Assembly (NCBI GenBank): GCA_904386005.1
Contig: CAJFKR010000001.1
Coordinates: 139,525-203,524 of the forward strand
Origin: Candidatus Flemingiibacterium merdigallinarum
GTDB lineage: Bacteria > Bacillota > Clostridia > Oscillospirales > CAG-272
Direction: 5' to 3'
Length of the DNA: 64,000 nucleotides
The notes beneath the pieces are model-generated. The model searched no databases and was not told where the DNA came from. It saw nothing but the letters and a program-made list of their open reading frames with translations. Positions within the stretch are counted from its first letter, which is position 1; each line of letters starts with the position of its first letter. The translations under genes were made by a program, and so were the position numbers. Below are positions 2,715 to 53,687 of the stretch, in pieces.

Positions 2715-5456
2715 TCACTCCTCGCTGCCGCCGCTTACATTCGACTCGGCCATAATATCGACGAGCGCGTGTACCATTGACGCGGTTTCGGCGCGGGTCG
2801 CCGGCTCGCTCGGGCAGAGCTGTCCGTCGCGGCTCGGGTAGATGTCGTTCATCAAAAGCCAGCAGACCGGCTCGTATGCCCAGTCGGAGACGTCGTCGGC
2901 GTCTTCGTAGTCGAGACGGAACATCCACAGTCCGTCAAAGCCGCCGTCGTGGTATTGCAGATAGCGGTAGAGTATCGCCGCGAGCTGCTCGCGTGTGACC
3001 TCGTTGTTCGGACCGAAGGTGACCTCGTCGTAGCCATTGACGATTCCCTCTGCCGACGCCCAGCGAACCGCCTCGCTGTACCACTCGTCCTCGGGCACAT
3101 CGTCAAACTGCATCAGGTAGTTGACGACCGGACAGCCCTCGGCGCGCCAGAGTATAGTCACCGCCATCGCGCGGCTCAAGGTCAGGTCGGGCGCGAACAA
3201 TCCGCCAGGCAGACCGTCCATCAGCCCGTTTTCGGTCACAAATTTGACGTCGTCATAATACGGGCTTTCCTCGTCGATATCCGAATAAGGATTCTCCCAC
3301 GGCAGCGGCGCGAACACGGCTTCAATCGTATGGTCTTCGCGCACCCGTTCGAGGGTGAAGCTGCCATCGGCGCCGACCTCGTCGATTCGGCTTTCGCTGT
3401 CAACTATGATATCAGCGAGCATATAGCCGTCGTCAGGCGTCAGGGTGTAGCCGACGCTGCCGTCATAGCGCACCTCAGTTGTGCCGGCAGGCGAAATCGT
3501 GCCGCCGTCGGTCGCGGACGCGGTGACGTCGAAGGTTTGATTCAATATCGGAAGCAGCCAGATGAAGTCGTCGTCGGAATCGTCGGGTTCGGGTTCGTCA
3601 GGCTCTTGATCTATCGGCGTGTATAGTGCGGTCACATCGACCGGATATTCAGGCATTATGAATACGATTTCGGGCTTGTATTTGTCGGCTTCGGTGAGAT
3701 ATCCGTCGGCAATCAGCTGCTCGAGCCCCTGCCATTGGCTGAATTCTTTGTCGTCGTATTCCTCGGCGGTCAACCGAACCGCGGTGCCCTCATAATGTTC
3801 GGTAACGATTCCATCTACAGTCACCGAAAACGGAGTTTCGTCTGTGACGTCAGACAATACTACCTTGCCTTGGTCTATACGCAGTACGTATGTGTCGCTC
3901 ATATAGCGCAATGCCGCAAGATCCTGCGCGGTTATTGTGTATCCGTTATAGCCGGTCGCCAGCAGCAGATTATCACATTCAAGCCATGTATAGAAGTTGA
4001 GCGCTGCGCCGGAGGTGAGTCCGGCGATTTCTATATTTGAATAGCCGTAATTGTGGTTTCCGTCCGGATAAAGACCGCCGTCGGTCTCCTTGTCGGAGGT
4101 ATTGCCGGTTACGATCGGATTTCCACTTATGATGATATTGCCAAACGGCGAGCAATAAATTCCTCCGGCGTGAATGACCGCGTTATTGTCGGCTACACTT
4201 CCGCCGTGCAGCTCGAGCGTGCCGTCGATGTTGACAAAGATTCCGCCGCCGACTTTGATTGCCTTATTATTTGAGATTGTTCCGGACTCGAGTGTGAAAA
4301 ACGAGTCGGAGTTATCCACATACACGCCGCCGCCATACGTCGTCGCGGTGTTGTCTGAAATTTCTCCGCCAGACATAACGACGCTACCGCTGACTATGTA
4401 GACACCGCCGCCCAGCTGCGCGGTGTTGTTCGAGATTTGCGCGCCTTCCTGAATATACAGCTTGCCGTCGATCAGGCAGACTCCGCCGGACGCGCCGTTT
4501 TTGGTCGTGTTGTTGTTATTGCGCACGACCGCGCCGTCGCCGAGCGTGAGGCTGCCGCCGTTTATCGCGATGAGTCCTCTCGACGCGGTCAGTCCCTGCT
4601 CGCTGCCGCCGTCGACAATTACATTATTCAGCTCCACAGCATCGGAAATCTGAAGCAGATAGCCGTGCTTATCCTTTGTCGTGGATATTGATTTTGCCGC
4701 GCCGTCACTGGTTATAGTCAGACTTTTTTCAAGCGAGACAGTCGATGTGAGCTCGACGTCATTGATAAGATATATTGTGCCGCCGTCATACGAGTTTTCC
4801 ACAGCCTCGGCGAACGAGCCGGGCTGCCAGCTCTGTCCGGGCGCGGTCTGATATCTGGCGTCGGCTTCCTCAATAATGCTGAAGCTGAAGGTCAGCTGAC
4901 CTTTGTATTTTGCGGTATTCTTGGGCGCGATTGTGACTTCATATGTGCCGACCTCAACCGGCAAGGACGGGAGAATTTCGCCGGTGTCTTTTTTATAGGT
5001 TATATCATAATCGCCGTTGAAGTCCGAGCCGTCGGTGAGCTTTCCGCTGAGATTGATATATCCCGGATGCGGGTTGCCGTCGTACAGCACATTCTGCGGC
5101 TCGGCGGTGATGTTGACTATGTACTGTCCGGTGAGGCGTACATTGATATTGCATATGATAGTATCGCCGGTAGTGGTCGTCAGCTCGACGACAAGCGTCG
5201 TTGACACCGGCTCCTCAAAGGCTCGGGTGCTGAATTTCATATATCCATTCTGTTGCAATATCGGAACGGTGTAACCGGAGACTATACTGCTGTCATAAGA
5301 GAGCAGTTCGCCTGACGAAAGCTCTGTTTCCTTGGGCAGATATTCGAGAAAGTTGATTCTGAACTGCTGCTCGGTGTCGACCGGAGCTGACACATTGATA
5401 TCGACAGTCTGCGTGTCCGCGCTCAACGCAAATGTCAGGCAGACTGACAGCAGCAT
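2715..5456 (-). CDS. Large cell-surface protein: Ig/MBG-like N-terminal region, parallel beta-helix with GGGVY/GGGIF repeats, two Listeria-Bacteroides-type repeats, three C-terminal SLH domains
   Basis: 913-aa ORF. SLH motifs are present, e.g. FDDVPEDEWYSEAVRWASAEGIVNGY and ASMVHALVDIM-type ends. The annotated Met lies inside a signal-peptide h-region. The real ATG with its RBS is at 5488 in another frame (see finding). Confidence 0.8.
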   Translation of the reverse strand: MLLSVCLTFALSADTQTVDINVSAPVDTEQQFRINFLEYLPKETELSSGELLSYDSSIVSGYTVPILQQNGYMKFSTRAFEEPVSTTLVVELTTTTGDTIICNINVRLTGQYIVNITAEPQNVLYDGNPHPGYINLSGKLTDGSDFNGDYDITYKKDTGEILPSLPVEVGTYEVTIAPKNTAKYKGQLTFSFSIIEEADARYQTAPGQSWQPGSFAEAVENSYDGGTIYLINDVELTSTVSLEKSLTITSDGAAKSISTTKDKHGYLLQISDAVELNNVIVDGGSEQGLTASRGLIAINGGSLTLGDGAVVRNNNNTTKNGASGGVCLIDGKLYIQEGAQISNNTAQLGGGVYIVSGSVVMSGGEISDNTATTYGGGVYVDNSDSFFTLESGTISNNKAIKVGGGIFVNIDGTLELHGGSVADNNAVIHAGGIYCSPFGNIIISGNPIVTGNTSDKETDGGLYPDGNHNYGYSNIEIAGLTSGAALNFYTWLECDNLLLATGYNGYTITAQDLAALRYMSDTYVLRIDQGKVVLSDVTDETPFSVTVDGIVTEHYEGTAVRLTAEEYDDKEFSQWQGLEQLIADGYLTEADKYKPEIVFIMPEYPVDVTALYTPIDQEPDEPEPDDSDDDFIWLLPILNQTFDVTASATDGGTISPAGTTEVRYDGSVGYTLTPDDGYMLADIIVDSESRIDEVGADGSFTLERVREDHTIEAVFAPLPWENPYSDIDEESPYYDDVKFVTENGLMDGLPGGLFAPDLTLSRAMAVTILWRAEGCPVVNYLMQFDDVPEDEWYSEAVRWASAEGIVNGYDEVTFGPNNEVTREQLAAILYRYLQYHDGGFDGLWMFRLDYEDADDVSDWAYEPVCWLLMNDIYPSRDGQLCPSEPATRAETASMVHALVDIMAESNVSGGSEE

Positions 5457-9920: not shown

Positions 9921-10039
9921 GTTTATATTTATCCTTTCATAGTTGTTAGTTGTTTATTTATTAGTTATTAGTTATTAGTTGTTAGTTATCAGTTGTTAGT
10001 TATCAGTTGTTAGGTTGGGGCTGCGGCTGATATTATATT

Positions 10040-20691: not shown

Positions 20692-20760
20692 CGCGTTTCT
20701 ACATGGACTTCAATATATATTAATTAGGCTATTGCAAAAGTGCAAGTCTGTTTGCTTTTA

Positions 20761-20798
20761 CTGGGGGAGGTGCCTTTTGAAAAAGGCACCTCCCCCAG
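20761..20798. other. Perfect 18-bp-arm inverted repeat (terminator-like hairpin without a U-tail)
   Basis: ctgggggaggtgcctttt/aaaaggcacctcccccag. No T-run on either side. Confidence 0.5.
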
Positions 20799-20879
20799 AC
20801 CCCCTCCGCGAAAACTTTAATAATTTGGTCAAAGCATAATTGTTTATAACTTCACAGAGATTATATAACTGCTTATCGT

Positions 20880-21080
20880 TAGAACAACAGAGATGCGCCG
20901 CCTAATGGGACCCTGCTTCCCAACCGGCGGCTTGGTTTCTACGTGGCTGTTTGAAATCGACTTCAGCTTCGCTGATCGCCGCTCCTCGCTCCTGAATTCT
21001 CCTCTATTCTCGCTAATCCTCGCTCCTGAATTCTCCTCTATTCCCGCTAATCCTCGCTCCTGAATCCTCATCCATTCCTG
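20880..21080 (-). repeat. GA-rich (on minus strand) intergenic repeat block: 34-bp tandem repeat x2.8 plus a hairpin module related to those at 28288 and 53688
   Basis: 34-nt units at 20987..21020, 21021..21054 and 21055..21080. The segment cagcgaagctgaagtcga (minus strand) is shared with 28299..28318. Confidence 0.6.
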
Positions 21081-21164
21081 CAATGCGCGGAAGCTGATGC
21101 TGCCCGCCGAGGTATAATTTGCAAATATGTGCGTATTGCACAAAAATAACAGAGATATTTCTGC

Positions 21165-21193
21165 TTGACAAAGCTCATATAGTGTCGTATAAT
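21165..21193 (+). promoter_or_regulatory. sigma-A consensus promoter P1 (TTGACA-17-TATAAT), about 200 nt upstream of blaI-like gene
   Basis: Exact hexamers at 21165..21170 and 21188..21193. Confidence 0.55.
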
Positions 21194-21276
21194 ATTAGTA
21201 TCGAATCGAATTTTATTACGGCTATATCACAGACTGGCGAAATTTTATAAATATCGAAAAATTTCGGCAAAACCTC

Positions 21277-21305
21277 TTGACACACGTAGTAAATTGTGAT
21301 ACAAT
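21277..21305 (+). promoter_or_regulatory. sigma-A promoter P2 (TTGACA-17-TGaTACAAT) of the blaI/blaR1-like operon
   Basis: Hexamers at 21277..21282 and 21300..21305. The palindrome ATTGT-gat-ACAAT overlaps the -10. Confidence 0.55.
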
Positions 21306-21388
21306 AGTATTGCAGGATTACACCATGACGTGTCGGAACGGCTTCCTTATCCACTTCCGGCGCGCCGATAAGGAATGGAGATAATCGT

Positions 21389-21790
21389 ATGATAAAGAAA
21401 AAGAAAGATTTCACAAAGCTTCCCGCATCCGAGCTTCAGATCATGCAGCTTATCTGGGATATGAACCAGAAGGGCGTGAAGGATATTCACGCCGGCGCGC
21501 TGCTCGCCGCTTACCCTGACGAGATTGGTCATCTCGCGCTTACCACGGTACTGACTCTCATTTCGAGACTTCAGACCAAGGGCTTTATCCGCCTTGAAAA
21601 GCACGGTCGCGCTAACTGCGCCATTGTAATCGCCGACGAGGACGAATACAAGCGCAAGGCGGCAGCCGACTTTGTTGCGACAGTTTATGAGAACAACACA
21701 AAGGGTCTGATTTCGGCTCTTTACAGCGACGGCATTCTTTCAAAGGAGGACATAGCCGAGCTGCGGCAGGAAATCGAAAACGACAAATAA
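21389..21790 (+). CDS. BlaI/MecI/CopY-family transcriptional repressor
   Basis: LPASELQIMQLIWDMN...TVLTLISRLQTKGFI winged-helix pattern. GGAATGGAG RBS. Confidence 0.88.
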   Translation: MIKKKKDFTKLPASELQIMQLIWDMNQKGVKDIHAGALLAAYPDEIGHLALTTVLTLISRLQTKGFIRLEKHGRANCAIVIADEDEYKRKAAADFVATVYENNTKGLISALYSDGILSKEDIAELRQEIENDK

Positions 21791-21805
21791 AGGTGGTGCT
21801 TCGGG

Positions 21806-23707
21806 ATGTTCGGCTTCGTTTTAAGCTTAACCGTGATGTCCGTGATGTTCACCTTGTCCGGCGGGGCGGCATTCATACTTCGGCGCACTCTAATGCGTGG
21901 GCGCGAGGGGAGAATGTACCCTGTCTGGATTGCTCTCTTTGCAATATCCGTTATACCGATTCGATTTAACCTTCCGGATATTGAACTTACCGAAGCGGCG
22001 AATTATAACACTGCTGCCGATATTTCAGACAATATCGCACAGGCTGATTCGCATTTTGACTTACAGCAGCCGATTGAGCCAGGTGTCAAGGACTCATCAG
22101 ATCTGCCGCGACAAAACGAAAATCTCGCTGAACTTCACCTGAGACGTTTCTTGGTCGCATTTGCCGAAAATCTCGATATGCTCACTTCCGTATTGTTTCT
22201 TTTGTGGCTCTCGGGCGCGACTATCAATTTCATTGTGTCGATGAACGAGTACTTTAGCGCGAAACGTATGCTTTACGCGAATTCGACGCCCCTGTGCGAT
22301 GAGCGGCTGATGTCGCTTATTGAAAAGGTGCGCGCCGATTGCCGCCTGAAGCGTCGGGTTGAAGTGCGCGTATTCGACGATATGCTGGTCGCGTCGCCGT
22401 GCGTGAGCGGTTGTCTCAAACCGATTTTGTACATCGAGTCGGGGGCTAAAGGGCTCGACGACGACAAGCTGCGCTATATCATTGCGCATGAGCTGACCCA
22501 TATCAAGCGCCACGATATTTTAATCAAGCTGTTTTCACTGTTCACCGCCGCGGTACACTGGCTGAATCCTGCAACCCGCAGCGTACTGCGCGCCGTATAC
22601 GAGGACTGCGAGCTGTCCTGCGACAGCCGGGTCATAAGTATCTACGGCAAGGAAATCAGCGGCGTCTATATGGGCGCGATACTCGATTTTGCGGAACGCT
22701 TTTCTGAAAACTCTCGACTCATCGGCGCGCCGATGCTGAACGGAGGACTGTTTGTCGCCCCGCCGTCCGGCGCACGTTATCTGAAAAGGAGATATGTGAA
22801 CATGAAAGGCTTCAGAAAAGATCGTGTGGCAGGCGTAATAACGGCATTGTTCTGCACAGCCTGCGCGGTGTCAAGCACCGTCGCGCTGTCCGCCTGCTCA
22901 GATATTACCCCAGGATTTTTCGAAAACGCGATAGTCCTCGACCAGCCGGTCGAGCAGATGGTTCGCGCATATTACGGACTGACCCTTGACGATTTCATCA
23001 CTCCGGATATGGTAGACGGAATAACGCAGCTCGAGGTCAGAGCACGCGAGAGCGCCGACGGCAAGATTTACGCCGAGTTCGTCGTGAACGGTCTCGACGG
23101 CTTTGCGTCGCCGCAGCCGAACTATTCAAAAAAGGTATATTGGGAAGACTGCACAGCCATGGCGGAAGCTATAACTGACTATGAGGGCGGTGCAGACCGG
23201 CAGAGAACCGATCTCAACAAGATCAACGCGTTCTATCAGCTCAAGGATCCAAGCGATCCAATGCTGACCGAGCGCGCACGTGCCGAGCTGCTCGCAATGT
23301 TCCCGATACTGAATGAAACCGGCGCGCTCTATTTCTTCGACCCCTACGCGTCCGAGCGCGAGATAAACGAGATACTGACGATATACGACCGCATGGGCGT
23401 CGCCGACCTGTGGGAAGTCGGCTCATACGAGTTCGACGCGTCGTCGCTGATGTATTTCACGAATCTGCGCGAGGTTACATTTGTCGGCTTTACGCCGGTG
23501 AATTACGATTTTCCGGATACGATCAAGGTGACGCTGGTCGACACGCAGCCGATCGAGACTGTCGATACCGACACGACCGAAGCGGTTGAAACGACCGAAG
23601 CGACCGACACGACCGAGGAAACCGCGGACACAAGTGCTGTTCCCAGCATCAAGGTTGAGGGCGGCGGTCGGGTTATCGTCGACAGCATTATCAGCACGCA
23701 ATCATAA
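21806..23707 (+). CDS. BlaR1-like M56 peptidase-family membrane sensor with divergent extracellular C-terminal domain
   Basis: N-terminal TM helices, zinc motif IIAHELTHIKRHD, and a Thr/Glu-rich C-terminal tail. Confidence 0.8.
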   Translation: MFGFVLSLTVMSVMFTLSGGAAFILRRTLMRGREGRMYPVWIALFAISVIPIRFNLPDIELTEAANYNTAADISDNIAQADSHFDLQQPIEPGVKDSSDLPRQNENLAELHLRRFLVAFAENLDMLTSVLFLLWLSGATINFIVSMNEYFSAKRMLYANSTPLCDERLMSLIEKVRADCRLKRRVEVRVFDDMLVASPCVSGCLKPILYIESGAKGLDDDKLRYIIAHELTHIKRHDILIKLFSLFTAAVHWLNPATRSVLRAVYEDCELSCDSRVISIYGKEISGVYMGAILDFAERFSENSRLIGAPMLNGGLFVAPPSGARYLKRRYVNMKGFRKDRVAGVITALFCTACAVSSTVALSACSDITPGFFENAIVLDQPVEQMVRAYYGLTLDDFITPDMVDGITQLEVRARESADGKIYAEFVVNGLDGFASPQPNYSKKVYWEDCTAMAEAITDYEGGADRQRTDLNKINAFYQLKDPSDPMLTERARAELLAMFPILNETGALYFFDPYASEREINEILTIYDRMGVADLWEVGSYEFDASSLMYFTNLREVTFVGFTPVNYDFPDTIKVTLVDTQPIETVDTDTTEAVETTEATDTTEETADTSAVPSIKVEGGGRVIVDSIISTQS

Positions 23708-23748
23708 ATATAAGCTCTTTGCTTAGATAAAAGCTCTTTGCTCAAATT

Positions 23749-23787
23749 AAAGCTCTCCGCTTCAAGCTGAAGCGGAGAGCTTTTTTT
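23749..23787 (+). terminator. Rho-independent terminator (probably bidirectional, between blaR1-like and ald)
   Basis: 16-bp stem aaagctctccgcttca/tgaagcggagagcttt followed by T7. Confidence 0.7.
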
Positions 23788-23810
23788 GACTTATGCTTCG
23801 ATTTTCAGAT

Positions 23811-24920
23811 TTATACTTCGAAAGGATTCGAATATTCAAGTCCGAGGCTGTCGGCGAGATTGCGATTCGCGCACTTGCCGTCGTAAATGTTCAGTCCCAT
23901 GACCAGACCGTGGTCGAGCTTCATCGCCGCTTCGAGTCCGTGCTGCGCAATCAGCATTCCGTAACGGAAGGTGGCGTTCGACAGCGCGATCGTCGACGTG
24001 TTCGGCACCGCGCCTGGCATATTTCCGACGCAGTAGTGTACGATGCCCTCGTCGATGTATACCGGATTGTCGTGCGTCGTGACGTGCGACGACTCGCAGC
24101 AGCCGCCCTGGTCGATTGCGATGTCGACGATGACCGCGCCCTTTTTCATAATTCCGAGATGCTCGCGGCGGATAAGCTTCGGAGTCGACGCTCCGGGTAT
24201 CAGCACCGAGCCTATAACGAGGTCGGCTTCGCGCAGCGACTTGCGGATATTCGCTTCGGTGCTGTACAGCGTAGTCACCGACGCGCCGAATATGTCCTCG
24301 AGGTAGGACAGCCGGTTCAGGTTGACGTCGAGCAGCGTCACCTGCGCGTCAATGCCGACCGCGGCTTTCGCGGCGTATGTGCCGGCGACGCCGCCGCCGA
24401 TTATCACAATCTTACCGCGCTCGACTCCGGGTACTCCGCCGAGCAGGATTCCGCGGCCGCCGTACGCCGCTTCGAGGTACTTCGCGCCCTCCTGTATCGA
24501 CAGTCGTCCGGCAATCTGGCTCATCGGGCGCAGGCAGGGCAGGTTGCCGTCGGCGTCGGTGATCGTTTCGAACGCGACCGCTTTGACGCCGCGTTCGAGC
24601 AGGACGTTCGCAAGCTCGGGATTCGCGGCGAGATGCAGGTAGGTGTAGAGAATCTGACCCTCGCGCAGATACTGATACTCGCAGGGCTCGGGCTCCTTGA
24701 CCTTGACAATCATATCCGCTTTGGCGAACACCTCGGCGGGCGAGTCGACAATGACCGCTCCGGCGGCGGCGTATTCGTCGTCCGAGAAATTCGCGCCCTC
24801 GCCGGCGTGTGTCTCGACATATACGGTGTGCCCCTTGGCGACATAGTCGGAAACGTTGTCGGGCGTGAGTCCGACGCGGTACTCGTGGTTTTTCAGTTCT
24901 TTTGTAGTTCCGATAATCAT
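23811..24920 (-). CDS. ald: alanine dehydrogenase
   Basis: MIIGTTKELKNHEYRVGLTP N-terminus, NAD-binding motif VIIGGGVAGTYAAKAA, 369 aa. Confidence 0.92.
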   Translation of the reverse strand: MIIGTTKELKNHEYRVGLTPDNVSDYVAKGHTVYVETHAGEGANFSDDEYAAAGAVIVDSPAEVFAKADMIVKVKEPEPCEYQYLREGQILYTYLHLAANPELANVLLERGVKAVAFETITDADGNLPCLRPMSQIAGRLSIQEGAKYLEAAYGGRGILLGGVPGVERGKIVIIGGGVAGTYAAKAAVGIDAQVTLLDVNLNRLSYLEDIFGASVTTLYSTEANIRKSLREADLVIGSVLIPGASTPKLIRREHLGIMKKGAVIVDIAIDQGGCCESSHVTTHDNPVYIDEGIVHYCVGNMPGAVPNTSTIALSNATFRYGMLIAQHGLEAAMKLDHGLVMGLNIYDGKCANRNLADSLGLEYSNPFEV

Positions 24921-24980
24921 TATGTGTTCATCCTAATCTGTGTATTTCGACGCAATAACGCGCGGTAGTATAATATACTA

Positions 24981-25009
24981 TTATACTACCGATTCGTAGA
25001 GATGTCAAT
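24981..25009 (-). promoter_or_regulatory. sigma-A promoter of ald (TTGACA-17-TATAAT, exact), overlapped by an 11-bp-arm palindrome
   Basis: On the minus strand, TTGACA is at 25004..25009 and TATAAT at 24981..24986. The palindrome ggtagtataat-atact-attatactacc spans 24965..24991. Confidence 0.6.
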
Positions 25010-25120
25010 AATATTTGCGGAAATCGCCGCGATAAAATGCAATATTTTTGATTTTCGCGGCTAAAACGCAAAAAATCCGTTCGCACCGCTGAGTGTACGA
25101 CCGGATTTCTGACCGTAATA

Positions 25121-26113
25121 TCAATAATGCACCGGCACATCGGTTTGGGCGCGTATCGTATCGACCCAGCGCGTGACGGCATCGGGAGCGGGCATAGTGT
25201 CGCAAGACCGCGATGTCTCACGGTTCATCGGATATTCGCGCCCGAGCCGCAGGCATTTCGCCGCGCCGAGCGGGTGGTAGGGCTCGACGTCGATTTCGAT
25301 TATATTCGTCAGCCGATTCGCGAGCGAAGCTATTGCCGCGAGGTGCTCTGGGCGGTCGTTCAGCCCGGGGATTATCGGACAGCGGAGTATCGATTTTGCG
25401 CCGACCGAGTCGAGCCGCAGCAGGTTATCGACAATCTGTCGGTTGTCGACGCCAGTGTATTTTTTGTGCAGCACGGGCGAGGTCTCCTTATAGTCGTAGA
25501 GGAAGATGTCGCAGACCTCGGCGAGCTCACGCAGCCGCTCAAATGGCGCGCAGCCGCTCGTCTCGACGCAGGTGTGCAGTCCCGACGCCTTCGCGCCGCG
25601 GAGAAGATTATAGGTGAATTCGAAGCTGTACAGCGGCTCGCCGCCGGTGACTGTCAGTCCTCCACGGACTGTCAGTCCGTATTCGCTGCCGTAGAAGTCG
25701 CGGTCGCGCAGGACGGTATCGAGCGTCTCGCCGACGGTCAGCTCGCGCCCACAGAGCTCGAGCGCTTCGGCAGGGCAGACGTCGGCGCAGCGTCCGCAGC
25801 CAATGCAGGCGGCGCGGTCGAAGATGTGGATTCGGTCGGGGTGACTGTTGTCGCGGTCGGTGTTACCGACTATGCGGTGGCACTCGCAGACCCGCGCGCA
25901 CTCGCCGCAGCCGATACACTTGCTCTCGTCGTAGAACAGCTCGGGTTCACGCCGCTTCGACTCGGGGTTGTGACACCAAAGGCAGTCGAGCGGACAGCCC
26001 TTCAAAAACACCGACGTGCGTATGCCCGGTCCGTCGTGGACCGAGAAACACTGAATATTGAATACTGTCGCGGTTACGGTCGGGTCGAATTGTGTGGATA
26101 AAATCTGGTTCAT
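25121..26113 (-). CDS. Glycyl-radical enzyme activase AE-1 (radical SAM with two auxiliary ferredoxin-type clusters)
   Basis: FNIQCFSVHDGPGIRTSVFLKGCPLDCLWCHNPES, plus CIGCGECARVC and CIGCGRCADVCP. Start set at ATG 26113 (MNQIL), 43 nt after the GRE-1 stop. Confidence 0.9.
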   Translation of the reverse strand: MNQILSTQFDPTVTATVFNIQCFSVHDGPGIRTSVFLKGCPLDCLWCHNPESKRREPELFYDESKCIGCGECARVCECHRIVGNTDRDNSHPDRIHIFDRAACIGCGRCADVCPAEALELCGRELTVGETLDTVLRDRDFYGSEYGLTVRGGLTVTGGEPLYSFEFTYNLLRGAKASGLHTCVETSGCAPFERLRELAEVCDIFLYDYKETSPVLHKKYTGVDNRQIVDNLLRLDSVGAKSILRCPIIPGLNDRPEHLAAIASLANRLTNIIEIDVEPYHPLGAAKCLRLGREYPMNRETSRSCDTMPAPDAVTRWVDTIRAQTDVPVHY

Positions 26114-26156
26114 GTTTGATTTTGTGTCATCTGGTATCAAGTTCGTCGGCTTTATG

Positions 26157-28265
26157 TCAAATCTCGTGCTCGGTGCGCAGCAGAACTTCCTCCTGCATCT
26201 CGGGCGAGAGGTGGACGAAATAATCGCTGTAGCCGCCGATGCGCACGACGAGGTCGCGATAAGCCTCGGGGTTCTCACGCGCGGCGAGCAGAGTGTCGCG
26301 GTCGACGATATTTATCTGTATCTCGAAACCGCCGCGCGCGAGGTAGGCGCGGATAAGCTCGGCGGCTTTGCGGCGCGAGTCGGCGTTGAAGGTCTTTTTC
26401 GTGAACTTCATATTGACCGCGACGCCGCCGATGAGTTCGGTGTGGCTCCACTTCGTGCTCGACAGTATCGACGCGGTCGGACCGCGCCTCTCGCGCCCCT
26501 GACAGGGACCCGAGCCGTCGCCGAGCGGGAATCCGGCGAGCCGTCCGTCGGGAGTCGCGCCGGTCGAACGCCCGAACTGCTCGTGCATAATCCAGCAGAA
26601 CACGCTCGGCACGAGGTGTCCGTTTGTGAACATAGGCGTGTATTTTTTGCATTCGGCGACGATGAAGTCGATGATACGACCGAACAGCGCGTCTACGCGG
26701 TCGATATCGTTGCCGTATTTGTCACAGCGGTTTAATAGCTTCAGCCGCAGCGGCTCGAAGCCCTCGAAGTTTTTGTCAAGCGCGGTCTTAAGTTCTGCAA
26801 GCGTCAGCTCGCCGCGCTCGAATATCAAGGTTCGGATAGCGTGCAGCGAGTCGACGAGATTCGCCATGCCGACAAAGCTCGGCATGATCCAGTTGTAGCG
26901 CGCGCCTCCCTGCTCTATGTCGACTCCGCGACGAAGGCAGTCGTGGACAAAGCAGGAGAGCAGCGGAGTCATTCCGCGCTCGGCGCGAAGTGCGCGTATG
27001 CGGTTCTGCTCGTCGAAGTTCGCGCGGATGTGGTTCGACAGCCGGTCGAAATAAGCGTTTATCAGCGACTCGAAGTCGTCGTATTCGCCGCCGAGCAGCT
27101 CGAGCAGCAGCCCGGGCATATTTGTGTAGGGGCTGGCTACCCAGACGTTCGACGAAGCTATCGGCGTGATTTCGACGCAGGTACTGTGTATGTACATATG
27201 CGAGTCGGACTCGGGCAGACCGTAGAGCCGTATGCCCTTTGAGATCACGTCGTCGTTGAATATTGCTGGATGCGAGCGTCCGTGCGACAGAATCTCACAG
27301 GCGCAGTCGAGGTATTCGTTCGGCATATCGCGCGTCCAGCAGAGCCCGACCGACGGATAGACGAGCCGTATGTCGTCGACGGCGCGCATACCCATTATAG
27401 TCAGCTCGTTCACGACCGGCTTGCCGTTATCGCGGCCGCCGAGCATATAGCCGGACGAGAGTCCGCGCGGCACACGGCGGTTTATCTGTATCGCGAGGCA
27501 GTCGATGAGGCACTGCGCCGTCTCGTCATCGATCGCTCCGCGCTCGACGTCGGCTTTGTAATAGCGGTAGAGGTAGCGGTCGGGGCGGCCGAGCTGAAAC
27601 TGCTGCGCGGCGAAGTAGCGGAAAGGGTCGAGCGTCAGGCAGTGCGTGACAAAATGCACCGACTGCACGGCTTCCCAGAAGCTCTCGGCAGGACCCGCGG
27701 GCACGCGGCGGCAGATGTTGGCGATAGTCCGCAGCTCTGCGGCGCGCTGTGGGTCGGTGCATTCAGCCGCGAGCTGCTCGGCACGGTTCGCGTAACGGCT
27801 CGCGTAGACCTTGACGGCTTCAAGGCAGGTGCGGCAGCAGCGGTAGAACGCGGCTTTGTCGCCGTCCGTATCGCCGAGTCTTTCGAGACAGGAGTCTATA
27901 ATAGATATAATGCCGTCGATTCCACCATCGAGCAGCAGGTCGTAGTCGACAGCCATATGCGAGTCCTGTCCGGCGATAGCGAGGCGGCTCGCGGCAATCG
28001 GCTGCAAACGCCGCCACTCATCGGCGTCGGCTTCGGTGAGCGGCGCGGACAGGTGTCCGACAATCAGCTCGTCGTCGTCAATCTCGGCGTCGAGTCCGGA
28101 GAGGGCGGTATAATAGGAGCGTGCGTAGCGTTCGCGGTCGTCAAGCTCGGGGCGGCGCTCCCACTCACGCCAGAAGCCGAGGTACATGGCTTCGTGGCAG
28201 AAGCGCGGCTCAACGGCGGCGCTCCGCAGGCGTTCGATGCGCTCGCGGTCGGAAGCTGTAAGCAT
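26157..28265 (-). CDS. Glycyl-radical enzyme GRE-1 (PFL-like fold, eliminase-type Cys-x-Glu loop), 702 aa
   Basis: C-terminal VVRIGGYSDYF with Gly codon at 26232..26234. Thiyl loop STCVE with Cys codon at 27177..27179. N-terminal ERIERLR...DDELIVG pattern. GAAAGGTG RBS before ATG 28265. Confidence 0.9.
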   Translation of the reverse strand: MLTASDRERIERLRSAAVEPRFCHEAMYLGFWREWERRPELDDRERYARSYYTALSGLDAEIDDDELIVGHLSAPLTEADADEWRRLQPIAASRLAIAGQDSHMAVDYDLLLDGGIDGIISIIDSCLERLGDTDGDKAAFYRCCRTCLEAVKVYASRYANRAEQLAAECTDPQRAAELRTIANICRRVPAGPAESFWEAVQSVHFVTHCLTLDPFRYFAAQQFQLGRPDRYLYRYYKADVERGAIDDETAQCLIDCLAIQINRRVPRGLSSGYMLGGRDNGKPVVNELTIMGMRAVDDIRLVYPSVGLCWTRDMPNEYLDCACEILSHGRSHPAIFNDDVISKGIRLYGLPESDSHMYIHSTCVEITPIASSNVWVASPYTNMPGLLLELLGGEYDDFESLINAYFDRLSNHIRANFDEQNRIRALRAERGMTPLLSCFVHDCLRRGVDIEQGGARYNWIMPSFVGMANLVDSLHAIRTLIFERGELTLAELKTALDKNFEGFEPLRLKLLNRCDKYGNDIDRVDALFGRIIDFIVAECKKYTPMFTNGHLVPSVFCWIMHEQFGRSTGATPDGRLAGFPLGDGSGPCQGRERRGPTASILSSTKWSHTELIGGVAVNMKFTKKTFNADSRRKAAELIRAYLARGGFEIQINIVDRDTLLAARENPEAYRDLVVRIGGYSDYFVHLSPEMQEEVLLRTEHEI

Positions 28266-28287
28266 AGACACACACCTTTCAAACAAG

Positions 28288-28549
28288 AGTGGTCTCGACT
28301 TCAGCGAAGCTGAAGTCGAGAGAGTGGAGAGTGGAGAGTGGTCTCAAACCGCCGCAGGCGGTTTGAGAGCTGTGGTAGGAAATCGCCGGAGGCGATTTCC
28401 GGAATTGATTATAAGAGAGGAGAGATGAGAGTGGGGAACGGACTCACCGCGGATGGTTTCGAGAGAACGGGCTCCCAAAGGGTGGTTTCGAGAGAGCGGA
28501 CTCACCGCGTGTGGTTTCGAGAGAGTGGACTTCCCACGGGTGTCGGAGC
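28288..28549 (+). repeat. GA-rich modular hairpin array (three long GNRA-like-looped hairpins plus 29-nt tandem units x3.5)
   Basis: Hairpins at 28293..28321, 28342..28368 and 28378..28400. 29-nt units start at 28438, 28467, 28496 and 28525. The 28318..28400 core recurs at 53783..53862. Confidence 0.7.
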
Positions 28550-28609: not shown

Positions 28610-29125
28610 TCATTCCTTGACAAAATAGCACATATCGAGAATGACGTTTCCTTTTTCGTCGGGGGTGGTGAAGCGGGGGCACTGGTAACGCTCGAAGAAC
28701 CAGAACGCGCCGTCCATAATCGCAAGCTCAAGCCCCTCGTCGGCAAGGCGAGGACAGATAACGTCCTCACGGCAGTACAGCTCGCCGTTTGACTCATTGC
28801 CGTAGACCTAAGCGACGCCGATTGGCGCGGCGGGGAAATCGTGATAGTCGAGTCCCTCGGGAACGGCGGTGTCAGGCTTCATGAACATTCCGATCCAATA
28901 TTCGAACGGCTCGCCGTCGAGGTGGCGCATGAGTCCGATATACGCGCCGCTGTCCTCGAAAAACTGCTCTCCGGCGATTGCTTCGAGCCGCTCGAATAGT
29001 CCGGTCTCGAACGCTTCGCCCCATTTTGCGCCGAAGCTGCCGTCGTCGCGGTCGTCGTCCGAGTATTTTTTGCCGATAAAGCGGGTCGCGGGCAGGGATT
29101 GTTTATAGATTCGCTTAATTTCCAT
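28610..29125 (-). pseudogene. GyrI-like / AraC-effector-binding-domain small-molecule-binding protein interrupted by an in-frame TAG
   Basis: MEIKRIYKQSLPATRFIGKKY...PIGVA, then TAG (28808..28810), then in-frame VYGNESNGELYCRED...MCYFVKE to the stop at 28610..28612. AAGGAG RBS before ATG 29125. Confidence 0.7.
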
Positions 29126-29373
29126 CGTGTGACTCCTTAGCTTTGTATTGCCGAACGCCATCGGATGCTAAGCGTTCGATTATGGTATAATCATACTACC
29201 ACACGGCTTCTGCCATGTCAATAGCCGGCGCGCAACCTGACGATATTCTATAAATGCTACAAAAATGCAGGTGCAATTTGTACAAATTGCGAGGGCGAGC
29301 TGTCAATATGCTTTTAATACTCCGATTGTGTTCGACTTCGATTTGATGTCATATCAAGAAATATGTTCGTTTC

Positions 29374-30405: not shown

Positions 30406-32568
30406 TCAAACTTTGCCCTCAAGCTCGGCGATTATCATGTTCTGCCAGTCGCAGTTCAGCGTCACGAAGCGTGCGTTCCAGCCCGACACGCGCACCGACA
30501 GCGCTTGATAATTCTCGGGGTGCGCCTGCGCGTCGCGCAGTATGCTCGCGTCGGCGACGTCCGGCTGCATGAAGAAACCGCCGAGCGTAACAAAGCCGCG
30601 CATCAGTCCGACGATAGCGTCGAGTCCCTCGTCGCCGTCGACGCTGTCGGGCAATAGCTTGATGTCGAGTGCCGCGCCGGTCACTTGCTTTGTGAGGTCG
30701 GCGGCGGCATACGACCGGATAATCGCGGTCGCGCCCTCGCGGTCACTGCCCGGGGTCGGCGAGCAGTTCGGGGCGAGCACCTCATGTGCGCGATGTCCGT
30801 GCGGCGACGCGAGCCGGTTCGGCGCCCACTCGAGCTGACGACCGAACGTGCTGACTCCGCTCGGAAAGCGATACCCGCAATTTGTGCCGAGCCTTTGCTC
30901 CATGTCATGACAGATGTCCGAGAAGTCGGAGAGCAGCTTTGAATAGATCGAGTCGACCTCGGGGTTGTCGTTGCCGAAGTAGCGGTACGCGGTCAGCATA
31001 TGCTGTCGGAGCGGCTCGCTTTCGTCCCAGTCCGCGGCGAGAATATCGAAGAATTCATCGAGCCCCAGCAGCCCCTCGTCGAATACGGCTTTCTTAATCG
31101 CGTACAGGCTGTTCACCGTGTCGGCGAGTCCGCCGATGTGCGGCGAGATGACGTTGTAGACCGGTCCGCCCTCGAAGTAGGAATATCCCCTCTCGATACA
31201 GCCCTGCTCGAACAGCGACACTACCGTGCAAGGGGCGGTCGGACGCCAGACGAGCCTGCCGTCAGGGTCGCGCTCGGTCTCGAAGCGCGCGAGCTGACCG
31301 CGTCCGATTCCCTCGACATATGCCTTGAGGTCGCGGACATACGCGTCGTACAGCGCGTCGAAGTCGGCGAAATCTCGATTCTTGTAGTCGGCGAGCGTCG
31401 TGTGCTGCAAAATCGCGAGCGAGTCGAACGGCGTGTAGATGAAGTAGGTCTTGCCCGGGATCTGCACCTCCCAGCAGCCGTCGTTCGCGAACCTTTTCGC
31501 TTCGCGCTCGTCGTATCCGAATTTGGTCAAGGCGTCGATAATCAGCGGCTCGTTGTACAGCGCGATTATGCCGCCGCCGTAGCGGATAGTGTTCGCGACG
31601 CGGTAGAGAAGCTCGTCGCTCGAGTCGGGCGAGATACGGACGGTTATCGGGAAATCGCTGATACCAAGCTCGTCGATTATGTCGAGGACGAGGTAGGTGA
31701 CATTGCACTCGACCGAGTTGTCGTTCTCGTCGATGCCGCCGAGCAGGATATTCTGATAATGCTGCGCATCGCCACTGCCGTAGTCGCCGCCGCTGACCCA
31801 CTCGCAGCCCTTGATGAAGAAGTGCGCGAGCAGCTCGCGCGCTTCGTCGAGTGTGATTTTGCCGTCGGCGAGGTCGCGCTCGAGATACTCGCCGAGCAGC
31901 ATATCAATCCGTCCGATGCCGGGCCAGTTTCCGCAGAGCCGCACAAACGCGAACGTGAACCACAGGCTCTGCACCGCCTCGCGGAAATTCGACGCCGGCT
32001 CGAACGGCACGCGGCGGAGTATGTCGGCGTTGTCGTGATATCCGCCCGCTTCAAGCGCGTTGATATAGCGGTCGCGCCAGATTAGCATTGAGTCAAGGCA
32101 GCTTTTACAGCTTGCGAGAAACTTAAGCCGTCGGGTCGAATACAGGTCGCTGTTAAATATTATCTCCGACATGGATTTTTCTATTTTGTCGTAAAGACCT
32201 ACGACTCCGTCTCTCAGCACCGACACAAAGTCGAGCGTCAGGTGGCTGACGCTGCCGAACACCGGACGACCGTCGATTGTCGCCGGAACGACGTGCGATA
32301 TCGCAAGTCCGAGTGTCGCCGCGCCCGATATAAGCTCGCCGTCACAGATTCGTATCGGCGCGCTCTCGGCGATACGGCGGATCGCGGCGTTGTATTTTTT
32401 CAGGTCGGACAGCTCCGATATGCCGTCGATATCGTCGAGCGGCACCGACATCACGCGTCGGGTGTCGAGCCCGTAGCGGTGGTCATACAGCGATTCATAC
32501 GCGAAGCGTCGCGTCGCGTCCGAAAGACGCACCGGACGCTTTTCTTTTGATACTGTGAAGAATTCCAT
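30406..32568 (-). CDS. Glycyl-radical enzyme GRE-2, 720 aa
   Basis: C-terminal SVRVSGWNARF with Gly codon at 30481..30483. Thiyl loop DGCWE with Cys codon at 31474..31476. GGGGAG RBS before ATG 32568. Confidence 0.9.
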   Translation of the reverse strand: MEFFTVSKEKRPVRLSDATRRFAYESLYDHRYGLDTRRVMSVPLDDIDGISELSDLKKYNAAIRRIAESAPIRICDGELISGAATLGLAISHVVPATIDGRPVFGSVSHLTLDFVSVLRDGVVGLYDKIEKSMSEIIFNSDLYSTRRLKFLASCKSCLDSMLIWRDRYINALEAGGYHDNADILRRVPFEPASNFREAVQSLWFTFAFVRLCGNWPGIGRIDMLLGEYLERDLADGKITLDEARELLAHFFIKGCEWVSGGDYGSGDAQHYQNILLGGIDENDNSVECNVTYLVLDIIDELGISDFPITVRISPDSSDELLYRVANTIRYGGGIIALYNEPLIIDALTKFGYDEREAKRFANDGCWEVQIPGKTYFIYTPFDSLAILQHTTLADYKNRDFADFDALYDAYVRDLKAYVEGIGRGQLARFETERDPDGRLVWRPTAPCTVVSLFEQGCIERGYSYFEGGPVYNVISPHIGGLADTVNSLYAIKKAVFDEGLLGLDEFFDILAADWDESEPLRQHMLTAYRYFGNDNPEVDSIYSKLLSDFSDICHDMEQRLGTNCGYRFPSGVSTFGRQLEWAPNRLASPHGHRAHEVLAPNCSPTPGSDREGATAIIRSYAAADLTKQVTGAALDIKLLPDSVDGDEGLDAIVGLMRGFVTLGGFFMQPDVADASILRDAQAHPENYQALSVRVSGWNARFVTLNCDWQNMIIAELEGKV

Positions 32569-32764
32569 TGCGGTATCTCCCCTCACAAGAATTGATGTGT
32601 GATTTAATTATACCATATATCGCGCCCGATTTGTATTGACAAAACTATGATAAATATGTATAATACTATTAATAAAAAAACCGCTGTCCGGCGCTTCAGT
32701 CGCACGGCAGCGGAAATATATAAATTATGGATTCGCGGTTTTTGCTAAAAATATGAGGGATAAT

Positions 32765-51540: not shown

Positions 51541-51574
51541 ATCTCCGGCAGCTTCGCTGCCGGAGATTTTTTTC
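51541..51574 (+). terminator. Rho-independent terminator
   Basis: 11-bp stem atctccggcag/ctgccggagat followed by T7. Confidence 0.75.
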
Positions 51575-51701: not shown

Positions 51702-53687
51702 ATGTCACAAGCCCTGCTTGACTATGTCCTCGCCGGTGAGCATCACGCGTTCCGCCGAGACGCCGCCGACGCGCTCGGAATCGACAATCTCGCCGAATAC
51801 TACCGCGCCGCCGGACTTACGCCCGAGGAGCGCATGGCGGACCGCTTCGAGCGGCTCTGCCGTGCCGAAACACCGCGTATACTTCCGGACGAAAAAATCT
51901 GCTATGTCCGCACGATAAAAAATATCCCCGACTGCTTCACGCCCGACGAGTGGGACGAGATACGAAAAGGTCACTTCATCCACGAGATCGGCTATATCTC
52001 GAACCTCTCGCCCGACTACGCGAAGGCAATCTCGCGCGGCCTCGTTGCACTGCGCGAAGAAGCCGACGAATACGGACGGCGCGCTATCGACAACATCATC
52101 GACCTCGCCGACCGCTACCGCGACGAGGCTTTGCGTATCGGCCGCGGCGACATCGCCGCGACGCTCGAGCGCGTGCCGCGCTACGGCGCGACGAATCTGC
52201 GCGAGGCGTTGCAGTTCTTCCGGATAATCCACTTCTCGCTCTGGCTCGAGGGCAACTACCACGTCACGACCGGACGCTTTGACAAATACATCTACCCCTA
52301 CTTCAAAGCCGACATGGACAAGGGAATATATACGCGCGAGACCGCGCTCGAGCTCATCGAGGACTTCTTCATCTCGTTCAACAAGGACAGCGACCTCTAC
52401 CCCGGAGTTCAGCAGGGCGACAACGGTCAGTCCATGGTGCTCGGCGGCCGCGACAAAAACGGGCGCGAATGGTTTTCCGAGCTGTCCGAGCTCTGCCTTG
52501 AGGCGAGCCGGAATCTCGGGCTGATCGACCCGAAGATAAACCTGCGCGTGTCGAAGTCGACTCCGATCGATGAATACATAAAGGGCACCGAGCTCACCCG
52601 CGCCGGACTCGGCTTCCCGCAGTATTCGAACGACGACGTCGTAATCGACGGGCTTGTCTCGCTCGGATATTCGCCCGAGGACGCGGCGAACTATGTCGTC
52701 GCCGCCTGCTGGGAGTTTATAATCCCGGGCTGCGCGTTTGATGTCGTGAATATCGGCGCGCTGTCATTCCCTAAGGTTATCGACACTGTGCTTCACACGA
52801 GCTTTTCGGGCTGCAATGACTTTGACGAGCTGCTGGGGAAAGTGCGCGACGAAATCAACGCCGAATGCGACTCGATAACCTCGAAGATTCACGATTTGTG
52901 GTTTGTGCCGTCGCCGTTCATGTCGGTCATGCTCGACGATATCAAGTACCGCAATTTCGGCATACACGGCACCGGCATCGCGACCGCCGCCGACTCGCTC
53001 GCGGCGATTCGAAAATATGTCTATGACGATAAATCCATAACTCCAACCGAGCTTATCGCCGCGGTCGACGACAACTTCGAGCACACTCCCGAGCTGTTGC
53101 ACAAGCTGCGCTATGACGCGCCGAAGATGGGACGTGACGACGACTATGTCGACGGTATCGCTACGTCGCTCGAGGATATGTTCGCCGACTCGCTCGCCGG
53201 CCGCCGGAACTGTGAGGGCGGAATCTATCGCGCCGGAACCGGCTCGGCTATGTACTACCTCTGGCACGCCGCCGAAATCGGCGCGTCGCCCGACGGCAGA
53301 CGCCGCGGCGAGCCGTTCGGCACGAACTTCTCGCCGAGCCTGTTTGCCGATACTGACGGTCCGGTGTCGGTCATAAAGTCGTTCACAAAGCAGCATCTCG
53401 GCAGGGTGATAAACGGAGGTCCGCTGACGCTCGAGTTCCACAACAGCGTATTCCGCGGCGACGACAGCCTTGAAAAAGTCGCGGCTATAGTCAAGTATTT
53501 TATCGACCGCGGCGGTCATCAATTGCAGCTGAACTCGGTCAATCTCGAGACGATGAAGGACGCGAAGCTGCACCCCGACAAGTACCGCCGTCTGGTCGTG
53601 CGGATCTGGGGCTGGAGCGCGTACTTTGTCGAGCTCGACCCCGAGTATCAGGATCATGTTATCGCGAGACAGGAATACAGCATTTAG
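51702..53687 (+). CDS. Glycyl-radical enzyme GRE-3, 661 aa (shortest of the three)
   Basis: C-terminal VVRIWGWSAYF with Gly codon at 53610..53612. Thiyl loop AACWE with Cys codon at 52707..52709. GAAAGGA RBS before ATG 51702. Confidence 0.9.
   Translation: MSQALLDYVLAGEHHAFRRDAADALGIDNLAEYYRAAGLTPEERMADRFERLCRAETPRILPDEKICYVRTIKNIPDCFTPDEWDEIRKGHFIHEIGYISNLSPDYAKAISRGLVALREEADEYGRRAIDNIIDLADRYRDEALRIGRGDIAATLERVPRYGATNLREALQFFRIIHFSLWLEGNYHVTTGRFDKYIYPYFKADMDKGIYTRETALELIEDFFISFNKDSDLYPGVQQGDNGQSMVLGGRDKNGREWFSELSELCLEASRNLGLIDPKINLRVSKSTPIDEYIKGTELTRAGLGFPQYSNDDVVIDGLVSLGYSPEDAANYVVAACWEFIIPGCAFDVVNIGALSFPKVIDTVLHTSFSGCNDFDELLGKVRDEINAECDSITSKIHDLWFVPSPFMSVMLDDIKYRNFGIHGTGIATAADSLAAIRKYVYDDKSITPTELIAAVDDNFEHTPELLHKLRYDAPKMGRDDDYVDGIATSLEDMFADSLAGRRNCEGGIYRAGTGSAMYYLWHAAEIGASPDGRRRGEPFGTNFSPSLFADTDGPVSVIKSFTKQHLGRVINGGPLTLEFHNSVFRGDDSLEKVAAIVKYFIDRGGHQLQLNSVNLETMKDAKLHPDKYRRLVVRIWGWSAYFVELDPEYQDHVIARQEYSI

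Follow-up and report, generated by a model that had tools for sequence, protein, structure and literature searches.

Arrays of perfect hairpins beside glycyl radical enzyme genes as probable members of a high-copy intergenic mosaic repeat in an uncultured gut Bacillota lineage

The hairpin array upstream of GRE-1

The present study concerns an array of hairpins in a 64,000-nt stretch of contig CAJFKR010000001.1 of Candidatus Flemingiibacterium merdigallinarum (hereafter the window), which has a G+C content of ~54%. Three glycyl radical enzyme (GRE) genes are found in the window.

26157 to 28268, minus strand: GRE-1, with PFL-like and Gly_radical domains and a radical-SAM activase downstream
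30406 to 32586, minus strand: GRE-2, with its own activase
51702 to 53687, plus strand: GRE-3, with its own activase

The array under study (locus A, 28286–28549) lies between GRE-1 and an upstream minus-strand gene, in a spacer that runs from the GRE-1 start codon (28268) to the stop codon of that neighbour (28610). A second array (locus B) occupies the GRE-3 spacer. An earlier note, made from the letters of the window, had described locus A as a modular hairpin array of a proliferating repeat family and had considered a link with the GRE genes. The analysis reported here suggests that locus A is probably an array belonging to an intergenic mosaic repeat of high copy number, a repeat confined to one lineage of uncultured gut Bacillota. 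From the GRE-1 side outwards, its parts are the following.

28286 to 28292, plus strand: first linker AGAGTGG, which forms the array edge facing the gene, at 18 nt from the ATG of GRE-1 (28268, minus strand)
28293 to 28321, plus strand: module 1, a perfect hairpin TCTCGACTTCAGC-GAA-GCTGAAGTCGAGA with a 13-bp stem; covariance-model score 58.5 bits
28322 to 28341, plus strand: linker GAGTGG(AGAGTGG)x2, a 7-nt tandem
28342 to 28368, plus strand: module 2 (the last module), TCTCAAACCGCC-GCA-GGCGGTTTGAGA, 12 bp; covariance-model score 40.4 bits
28369 to 28377, plus strand: junction GCTGTGGTA from the last module to the cap; junctions of the GCTGTGGTA type precede ~38 caps
28378 to 28400, plus strand: cap hairpin GGAAATCGCC-GGA-GGCGATTTCC, 10 bp, without a TCTC/GAGA frame
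28401 to 28435, plus strand: post-cap stretch, A/T-rich and then GA-rich; similar tails are found at other arrays
28436 to 28542, plus strand: 29-nt tandem repeat in the post-cap GA-rich zone (Tandem Repeats Finder: period 29, 3.7 copies, 76% matches)

The ribosome-binding site of GRE-1 is located between the ATG and the first linker, and the (A)AGAGTGG edge recurs at nearly all arrays of the relative described below. The 13-bp-stem hairpin that had been seen to flank the core (28293–28321) proved to be a perfect inverted repeat with a 3-nt loop, and the hairpin core as a whole folds far below shuffled sequences, with z = −7.0 on the plus strand and −9.5 on the minus strand. A TCTC...GAGA bracket had been claimed for every module; this was correct for the first two hairpins and incorrect for the third, which is the cap. 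The 29-nt tandem units of the earlier note were recovered at the position listed above, but they could not be retained as array modules, as they do not form hairpins (folding z = +1.2 and +0.5 compared with shuffles). The same z values ruled out the units as degenerate hairpins. These units were found nowhere else in the window, nor at any of the 34 loci retrieved from the relative. A coding reading of the array was also ruled out: a period of 29 nt is not divisible by three, and the open reading frames (ORFs) that cross the array are short and shift frame.

Comparison of locus A with locus B

The features of locus B begin at the stop codon of GRE-3.

53686 to 53717, plus strand: tandem of AGGAGTT heptads that begins at the stop codon of GRE-3; the relative has similar heptads at other loci
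53723 to 53747, plus strand: cap-type hairpin AGAAATTCGCC-GAA-GGCGAATTTCT, perfect
53759 to 53785, plus strand: imperfect module ACTCAAATTCGC-GAA-GCGAATCCGAGA, the homologue of module 1; covariance-model score 23.5 bits
53804 to 53830, plus strand: last module TCTCAAACCGCC-GAA-GGCGGTTTGAGA, perfect; covariance-model score 35.2 bits
53831 to 53862, plus strand: junction GCTGTGGAA and cap GCAATTCGCC-GGC-GGCGAATTGC, with the cap hairpin at 53840–53862
53879 to 53908, plus strand: tail of locus B, in which a small hairpin AATCC-GGC-GGATT is accompanied by an orphan linker GAGTGGTCTC that no hairpin follows

At each of the two loci, three hairpins are perfect and have loops of 3 nt; locus B has a folding z of −5.95 compared with shuffles. 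The identity of 85–90% between 28318–28400 and 53783–53862, which had been judged by eye, was reproduced by global alignment (72/83, 86.7%). A BLAST match between 28281–28398 and 53749–53860 (84.7% over 118 nt, E = 1.3e-29) takes in the first hairpin as well. The differences had been said to fall mainly in the hairpin loops; this was not the case, as only two of the ~11 differences are in loops. In the third hairpin, the cap, four differences make up two fully compensatory stem changes (GGAAATCGCC/GGCGATTTCC at locus A compared with GCAATTCGCC/GGCGAATTGC at locus B).

A dispersed family in a close relative

Metagenome contigs were scanned with the pattern AGAGTGGTCTC-N11-23-GAGAGAGTGG, which gave 34 loci (250 kb), all of them from two ENA assemblies. 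Every one of the 34 matches was a perfect hairpin with a stem different from the others, the frame common to them being GAGTGG-TCTC...GAGA-GAGTGG, and coverage was similar among the matched contigs within each assembly. One locus (L068) is the orthologue of window positions 21045–28345 at 94.8% identity, indicating that the organism behind the metagenome contigs is closely related to that of the window (hereafter the relative). In the window and the loci of the relative together (314 kb, selected for arrays), at least 148 perfect hairpins stand directly after a linker. They have 69 distinct stems, and 120 of the 148 carry the TCTC...GAGA frame. Thus the proposal of a proliferating structured repeat family with a constant frame and a variable top was borne out.

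A covariance model of the module gave 84 long-module matches at E ≤ 1e-3 in the relative and no match in control loci of other taxa, including a 68%-identical orthologue of GRE-1. Within the window, both the model (filters off) and the motif GAGTGGWCTC matched only at loci A and B. In the flanking sequence, two further arrays lie within 9 kb beyond the right end of the window, one between an AraC-type gene and an acetyltransferase gene and the other, a double array, upstream of rplI-dnaB; the left flank (9.5 kb) has no array. There are 4–5 arrays in ~82 kb of contiguous unselected sequence, and all arrays are intergenic.

The family was also sought elsewhere. Among 185,579 species-representative genomes, the pattern GAGTGGTCTC-N6-9-CGNAG-N6-9-GAGAG returned 33 matches, all of them chance matches without arm complementarity, and thus the family is absent from, or not assembled in, that collection. 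Viral contigs gave four chance matches with a trial pattern and none with the family pattern. Searches of Rfam at gathering and permissive thresholds yielded nothing relevant: the sole match in the window was a tRNA, and the best sub-threshold locus scores were below 20 bits. In the relative, several contigs stop within an array or within E2, a second repeat described below, which is the outcome expected of repeats that break short-read assemblies; the arrays do break them, many contigs of the relative stopping within arrays. The array family resembles the REP/BIME, BOX and NIME repeats and is a new relative of that repeat type. It is newly documented here, as a limited literature search found no earlier description in uncultured gut Bacillota.

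Pairing and covariation in the stems

The compensatory stem changes raised in the earlier note were found, and the covariation is very strong. It was measured on 38 segments of 29 nt, which were picked by their flanking linkers alone, with no pairing filter. Standard pairs occupied 90.7% of the cells compared with 61% in shuffles, and 135 cells had double changes compared with 43 in shuffles. The covariation score was 0.643 for the segments and 0.184 for shuffles, none of 500 shuffles reaching 0.643, and slid controls, in which the partners were shifted by 1–3 columns, scored at most 0.105. Two-sided changes were seen in 11 of the 13 pairs. Over all module-like segments, 1339 pairs were Watson–Crick, nine were mismatched and five were G·T. 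Linker-delimited modules gave the same picture, with 117 perfect, eight with one mismatch and three with only G·T departures.

The loop-closing pair is always C:G. In arrays abutting a called gene, 71 of 100 loops were GNA or its complement TNC, where 12.5% would be expected; the two forms were about equally common, and a preference on the sense strand was not significant (p = 0.10, 100 loops). Triloops of the GNA or TNC type closed by C:G are the most stable mini-hairpins of single-stranded DNA. There is no sign of RNA-specific wobble in the stems. The perfect pairing on both strands points to a constraint on DNA or on both strands, or else to a mechanism that equalizes the arms, and intrastrand template switching is known to turn quasipalindromes into perfect palindromes (PMC7202029). 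With its constant single-stranded frame and hypervariable stems that are 99% Watson–Crick, the family offers a natural system for studying the concerted evolution of palindrome arms, whether this comes about through template switching or through selection on structure.

Architecture and polarity of the arrays

Read on the purine-rich strand, an array runs from a gene boundary (start or stop codon) through the (A)AGAGTGG edge, the modules, GCTGTGGTA and the cap to an A/T-rich tail. The tail often continues into GA-rich low-complexity sequence, and the 29-nt units of the window sit in this part. Arrays have 1–6 modules, each built as TCTC-stem-3-nt loop-stem-GAGA and separated by GAGTGG(AGAGTGG)n, the linker length in the family being 6 + 7n nt. 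The modules are 17–31 nt long, with stems that cluster at 8 bp and 12–13 bp and loops that are almost all of 3 nt. The last module is often TCTCAAACCGCC-like, and the cap follows the family-wide consensus G(G)AAAT(T)YGCC-nnn-GGCRA(A)TTTC(C), with no TCTC/GAGA frame. At every module start of the TCTC type, the junction between linker and stem reads GGTCTC (e.g. 28291–28296 and 28340–28345), the recognition site of type IIS restriction enzymes of the BsaI/Eco31I kind; its occurrence at modules is probably incidental, because variants starting with TCTG, TGTC or ACAT lack it.

Among 37 arrays, the module end is no more than 50 nt from a gene in 24 and the cap end in five. Of the gene ends abutted, 21 were stop codons and 18 were start codons. 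Spacers with a gene on either side often hold two arrays that stand cap-to-cap, sometimes with a single common cap. Arrays at start codons present the pyrimidine-rich strand in the mRNA sense, as at GRE-1, hence the description of locus A as 'antisense' in the earlier note; arrays at stop codons present the purine-rich strand, as at GRE-3. The label therefore has no special meaning for locus A, since arrays on the start side normally face this way and those on the stop side face the opposite way.

A TATAAT-like box was found at ~10 of 38 caps. At locus A, the minus strand has a TATAAT at a distance of 7 nt from the cap (ATTATA at 28408–28413 on the plus strand), for which the promoter scan gave no −35 match. 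As TATAAT stands beside only about a quarter of the caps, a promoter carried by the element itself is not supported. A promoter scan at locus A gave two matches on the plus strand, directed away from GRE-1, which are probably due to chance.

Turnover between strains and samples

Locus A was compared with strains in which GRE-1 is 93–95% identical, and locus B with one strain (L081) in which GRE-3 is at least 90% identical. In the locus A strains, the cap and the last module are kept, and the first module differs in its stem or loop: the stem is replaced in L038 and the loop differs in L042. Module 2 is kept in both of these and has the loop GCC in L068. An extra short module (TCTCCGCC-CGC-GGCGGAGA) or an extra long module is present or absent, and L038 has three of the 29-nt units compared with four in the window. 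At locus B, the gene-proximal modules of L081 are entirely different and the AGGAGTT heptads are missing, with the last module (loop GCA compared with GAA) and the cap kept. Differences were also seen between metagenome samples with identical flanks. In one case, a cap present in one sample is missing from the other (L048 compared with L050), and in another case a whole cap-to-cap double array is inverted (L052 883–1083 compared with L077 8097–8301). One chimeric module resembles a deletion between two hairpins. With such fast variation from strain to strain, the arrays could serve as strain-typing markers.

A duplication was noticed within a single locus of the relative. In L047, a segment of ~1 kb is duplicated, and its arrays (4274–4365 and 5287–5378) differ by one compensatory G:C/C:G swap and a new loop.

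Relation of the arrays to GRE genes

The genes abutting arrays in the relative (n = 34) are diverse. They include rhamnosidases, FGGY kinases, GH35, GH123, a fucosidase, NFACT and ComM-like genes, and also GyrB, RelA/SpoT, a SPOUT methyltransferase, an MraY-like gene and MutS. A GRE gene is present at only two of the 34 loci, one with the orthologue of GRE-1 and one (L063) with a fourth paralogue, in which the array is located between the GRE gene and its activase. Arrays probably adjoin GRE genes only because GRE operons are among their many hosts, and neither a specific link with GRE genes nor recombination between the GRE loci, both of which had been considered, was upheld. Array copies are dispersed among unrelated genes, and what is seen is therefore largely what the earlier note had said would reduce the array to an ordinary repeat family.

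The reading that gives the GRE genes a special place is that of a GRE-specific cis-regulatory leader (a riboswitch, attenuator or operator array) common to the paralogous GRE operons. Two of the three arrays of the window flank GRE genes, the third GRE paralogue to adjoin an array, that of the relative (L063), has it between GRE and activase, and the edge of locus A is only 18 nt from the start codon of GRE-1. However, no GRE gene is present at 32 of the 34 array loci of the relative, where the neighbours include gyrB, relA/spoT, mutS, mraY and rlmH-like genes and glycosidases, and one array stands upstream of rplI. The orientation and the position relative to the gene are unlike between the GRE-1 and GRE-3 loci, modules are swapped between strains, the 68%-identical orthologue of GRE-1 in another Clostridia metagenome-assembled genome has no array, and Rfam gives no match to such a leader. 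This reading is largely refuted and we regard it as very unlikely. A false lead is thereby removed, as the element tells nothing specific on the regulation of glycyl radical enzymes.

Several observations weigh against the interpretation of locus A as one array of a dispersed, polar and high-copy repeat. Three GRE paralogues (GRE-1, GRE-3 and that of L063) adjoin an array, and there may be some enrichment at GRE operons. The copy number (about a hundred arrays per genome in order of magnitude) was extrapolated from the 4–5 arrays in ~82 kb. The polarity is based on crude ORF calls, and the module end is the closer one to the gene in 25 of 37 arrays (p = 0.047). A U-rich tail follows only some of the caps, with 1–6 T in the first 10 nt. 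The promoter scan upstream of the array for GRE-1 gave no match on the minus strand and none that was convincing. Finally, no transposase was found within the ~0.33 Mb of this lineage that could be read.

Comparison with known repeats

REPs (repetitive extragenic palindromes) and BIMEs (bacterial interspersed mosaic elements) belong to Enterobacteria and Pseudomonas. In Escherichia coli, a REP is an imperfect palindrome of 30–40 nt with a 5′ GTAG, and REPs occur as pairs in inverse orientation (REP and iREP) separated by linkers (PMC3333891). The activity of TnpA-REP requires the GTAG and a stem mismatch, and a mutant with a perfect palindrome is not cleaved (PMC3333891). The definition also includes hundreds of extragenic copies in a genome and a cognate RAYT gene with REPs on its flanks, which together make up a REPtron (PMC3333891). 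The arrays could be true REP/BIMEs, with a RAYT (TnpA-REP, a Y1 HUH transposase) that would recognize the hairpins as single-stranded DNA and multiply them, and with GTGG in the role of the GTAG head. The likeness is considerable: both are short G+C-rich intergenic palindromes in many copies, clustered in mosaics with short conserved linkers, both have a constant tetranucleotide at the 5′ foot of the stem (GTGG immediately 5′ of every stem in the arrays), both vary in copy number between strains, and both lie at gene ends, where they are able to act as 3′ mRNA structures. The lack of an excess of wobble pairs and of a strand bias fits a process at the DNA level, and strand transfer by TnpA-REP in vitro can build tandem BIME copies (PMC3333891). 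However, the defining features of the E. coli elements, namely the GTAG head, the imperfect palindrome and the REP/iREP inverse pairs (PMC3333891), are not those of the arrays. The array head is GTGG (within GAGTGG) and no GTAG is present; the stems are perfect and hypervariable (69 stems in 148 copies) instead of belonging to a few imperfect classes; and the modules run in one direct orientation, with asymmetric linkers, rather than alternating, only whole arrays facing each other cap-to-cap. The 3-nt loops with their invariant C:G closing pair and the distinct conserved cap hairpin of each array are further differences, and the host is an uncultured Bacillota. No NPVRAG-type Y1 motif, and hence no RAYT, was seen in six-frame translations of the window and L038–L080 (~0.37 Mb, of which ~0.33 Mb is of this lineage), which is a weak test. 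As three testable features failed, the array family was not filed as REP/BIME, and we consider that assignment unlikely.

The pneumococcal BOX element (boxA-boxB(n)-boxC) is a polar composite in which the internal modules vary in number (PMC3049150). Like the arrays, it belongs to a Gram-positive host, has variable internal modules between fixed ends in numbers that vary between strains, is predicted to form stem-loops if transcribed and stands next to many unrelated genes (PMC3049150, where the neisserial intergenic mosaic elements, NIMEs, are also named). However, BOX modules are 45–59 nt long and conserved in sequence, and boxA pairs with boxC, whereas the array modules are self-contained variable palindromes of 17–31 nt and the terminal element, the cap, is at one end only. 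In NIMEs, variable RS units are separated by conserved dRS3 repeats. The alternation of conserved short repeats with variable units in intergenic arrays is shared with the present family, but the variable units of NIMEs are 50–150 bp long and non-palindromic, and dRS3 is a 20-bp phage integration target, a role not indicated for the arrays. Rho-independent terminators and intercistronic stabilizer hairpins are similar in their G+C-rich stems at gene ends and in the U-rich tails after some caps, and internal terminators set operon stoichiometry in Clostridia (PMC9045158). In contrast with terminators, most modules have no U tract, stand in tandem and are found upstream of starts as often as downstream of stops.

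[quoted passage not shown] This candidate was rejected, as the two ends of the array are unlike (AGAGTGG edge and cap) and no flanking direct duplications were noticed in the sequence displays, in which they were not searched for systematically.

How the family may spread and act

How the family spreads and acts we infer from the features described above. The hairpins would exist in order to pair as single strands, as DNA and/or RNA. The perfect complementarity of their arms is probably due to intrastrand template switching at quasipalindromes, or else to selection that is equally strong for the two strands; whatever changed in one arm would be copied to the other, and the stems would drift with pairing intact. 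Slippage and recombination between identical linkers would lead to the gain, loss, swap and inversion of modules. The likely effect on genes would be through stable structures at transcript ends. Downstream of a stop codon, the modules, cap and U-rich tail might work as a 3′ stabilizer, attenuator or terminator, and the structure at locus B would have GRE-3 on one side and the activase of GRE-3 on the other. For an array upstream of a start, as at GRE-1, the role would be that of a structured 5′ leader. It is the position of the arrays and the U-rich tails of some caps that suggest these roles.

Other explanations were considered besides this passive mode of slippage and template switching. 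An active process might operate on the hairpins as cassettes, with a single-strand DNA enzyme (HUH/Y1-like or other) cutting between GAGTGG and TCTC and inserting, replacing or flipping palindromic cassettes at the gene-facing end of a cap-anchored array. Such a process would account for the constant frame, for perfect stems that are ever different and for the C:G-closed GNA/TNC triloops, and also for gene-facing variation with the last module and cap kept, as seen at the two loci compared. We give it only a small chance; if true, repeats would here proliferate in a new way, and the design of the arrays also allows a search for a possible new hairpin-mobilizing activity. The alternation of stable hairpins with purine-rich linkers containing GGAG on one strand recalls protein-sequestering small RNA (sRNA) genes of the CsrB/RsmZ kind, in which single-stranded GGA/GGAG between hairpins would titrate an RNA-binding protein or ribosomes. 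The Rfam family PrrB_RsmZ does give a weak match, but at 13.9 bits it is far under the gathering score of 44. The arrays, of the order of a hundred per genome by extrapolation, occur in both orientations relative to transcription, no unit of promoter plus terminator marks an sRNA gene, and the linker motifs are outside the loops, making this explanation extremely improbable.

A CRISPR array has repeats of at least 23 nt, unique non-palindromic spacers of similar size and usually cas genes. A CRISPR-like or templated memory array, with constant repeats, acquired units and growth at one end, would agree with constant linkers alternating with variable inserts and with a conserved cap-proximal end and a gene-proximal end that varies between strains. 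However, the 'repeats' are only 6–20 nt long, and the 'spacers' are perfect palindromes of 17–31 nt that are self-complementary and mutually related by paired substitutions, not foreign sequences. There are dozens of arrays per genome with 1–6 units each, and no cas-like genes were noted among their neighbours. This reading, rejected on the anatomy of the arrays, is next to impossible.

Neighbouring genes and other repeats

The gene upstream of the array (28610–29161, minus strand) looks interrupted, with ORFs of 117 and 35 amino acids in different frames, and its orthologue in L038 is called as a single gene of 171 amino acids. The interruption may be a frameshift or a sequencing error. No Pfam match is on record for the 117-amino-acid ORF or for the L038 orthologue.

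A third array of the window is degenerate.

20957 to 21080, minus strand: remnant of a module-1 hairpin, 19 nt identical to 28301–28319, followed by purine-rich 34-nt tandem units (AGGAGCGAGGA...)

Between this array and a blaI-like gene at 21389 are two near-consensus sigma-70-type promoters on the plus strand, at 21165–21193 (TTGACA-17-TATAAT) and 21277–21305 (TTGACA-17-TACAAT). As the promoters are 3′ of the degenerate array, the array is not in the blaI-like transcript.

A second dispersed intergenic repeat, E2, is ~210 nt long and unrelated to the arrays. It is present in the window at 20749–20956 (plus strand), and copies were also found in L049 (five copies), L047, L053, L061, L065, L077, L078 and L086 (~5240–5450). 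E2 starts with a 17-bp hairpin, CTGGGGGAGGTGCCTTT-TGAA-AAAGGCACCTCCCCCAG, and has a 37-nt core, GCGCCGCCTAATGGGACCCTGCTTCCCAACCGGCGGC, which is invariant in 11 of 12 aligned copies and has a single substitution in the other; the flanks are 81–96% identical. It lies between genes in either orientation, has several spacers in common with the arrays and stands directly upstream of a pyrimidine-strand array four times, including the rplI leader. E2 matched no Rfam family, was not found in viral contigs and contains no strong promoter of the sigma-70 type. A third intergenic repeat, of low complexity and built of heptads of the TAGTTAT/TAGTTGT type (e.g. ...aactaacaactaatatctaacaactaac...), is found at 9940–10013 of the window and in the spacers of L059, L067 and L072.

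Upstream of GRE-3, an intrinsic terminator at 51541–51567 consists of ATCTCCGGCAGC-TTC-GCTGCCGGAGAT and a run of T after it. The terminator shares with the family the TCTC...GAGA frame and the C:G-closed triloop, and the outer part of its longer stem, TCTCCGGC/GCCGGAGA, is the commonest short stem of the array family. A terminator hairpin may have been the ancestor of the modules, or a module that of the terminator.

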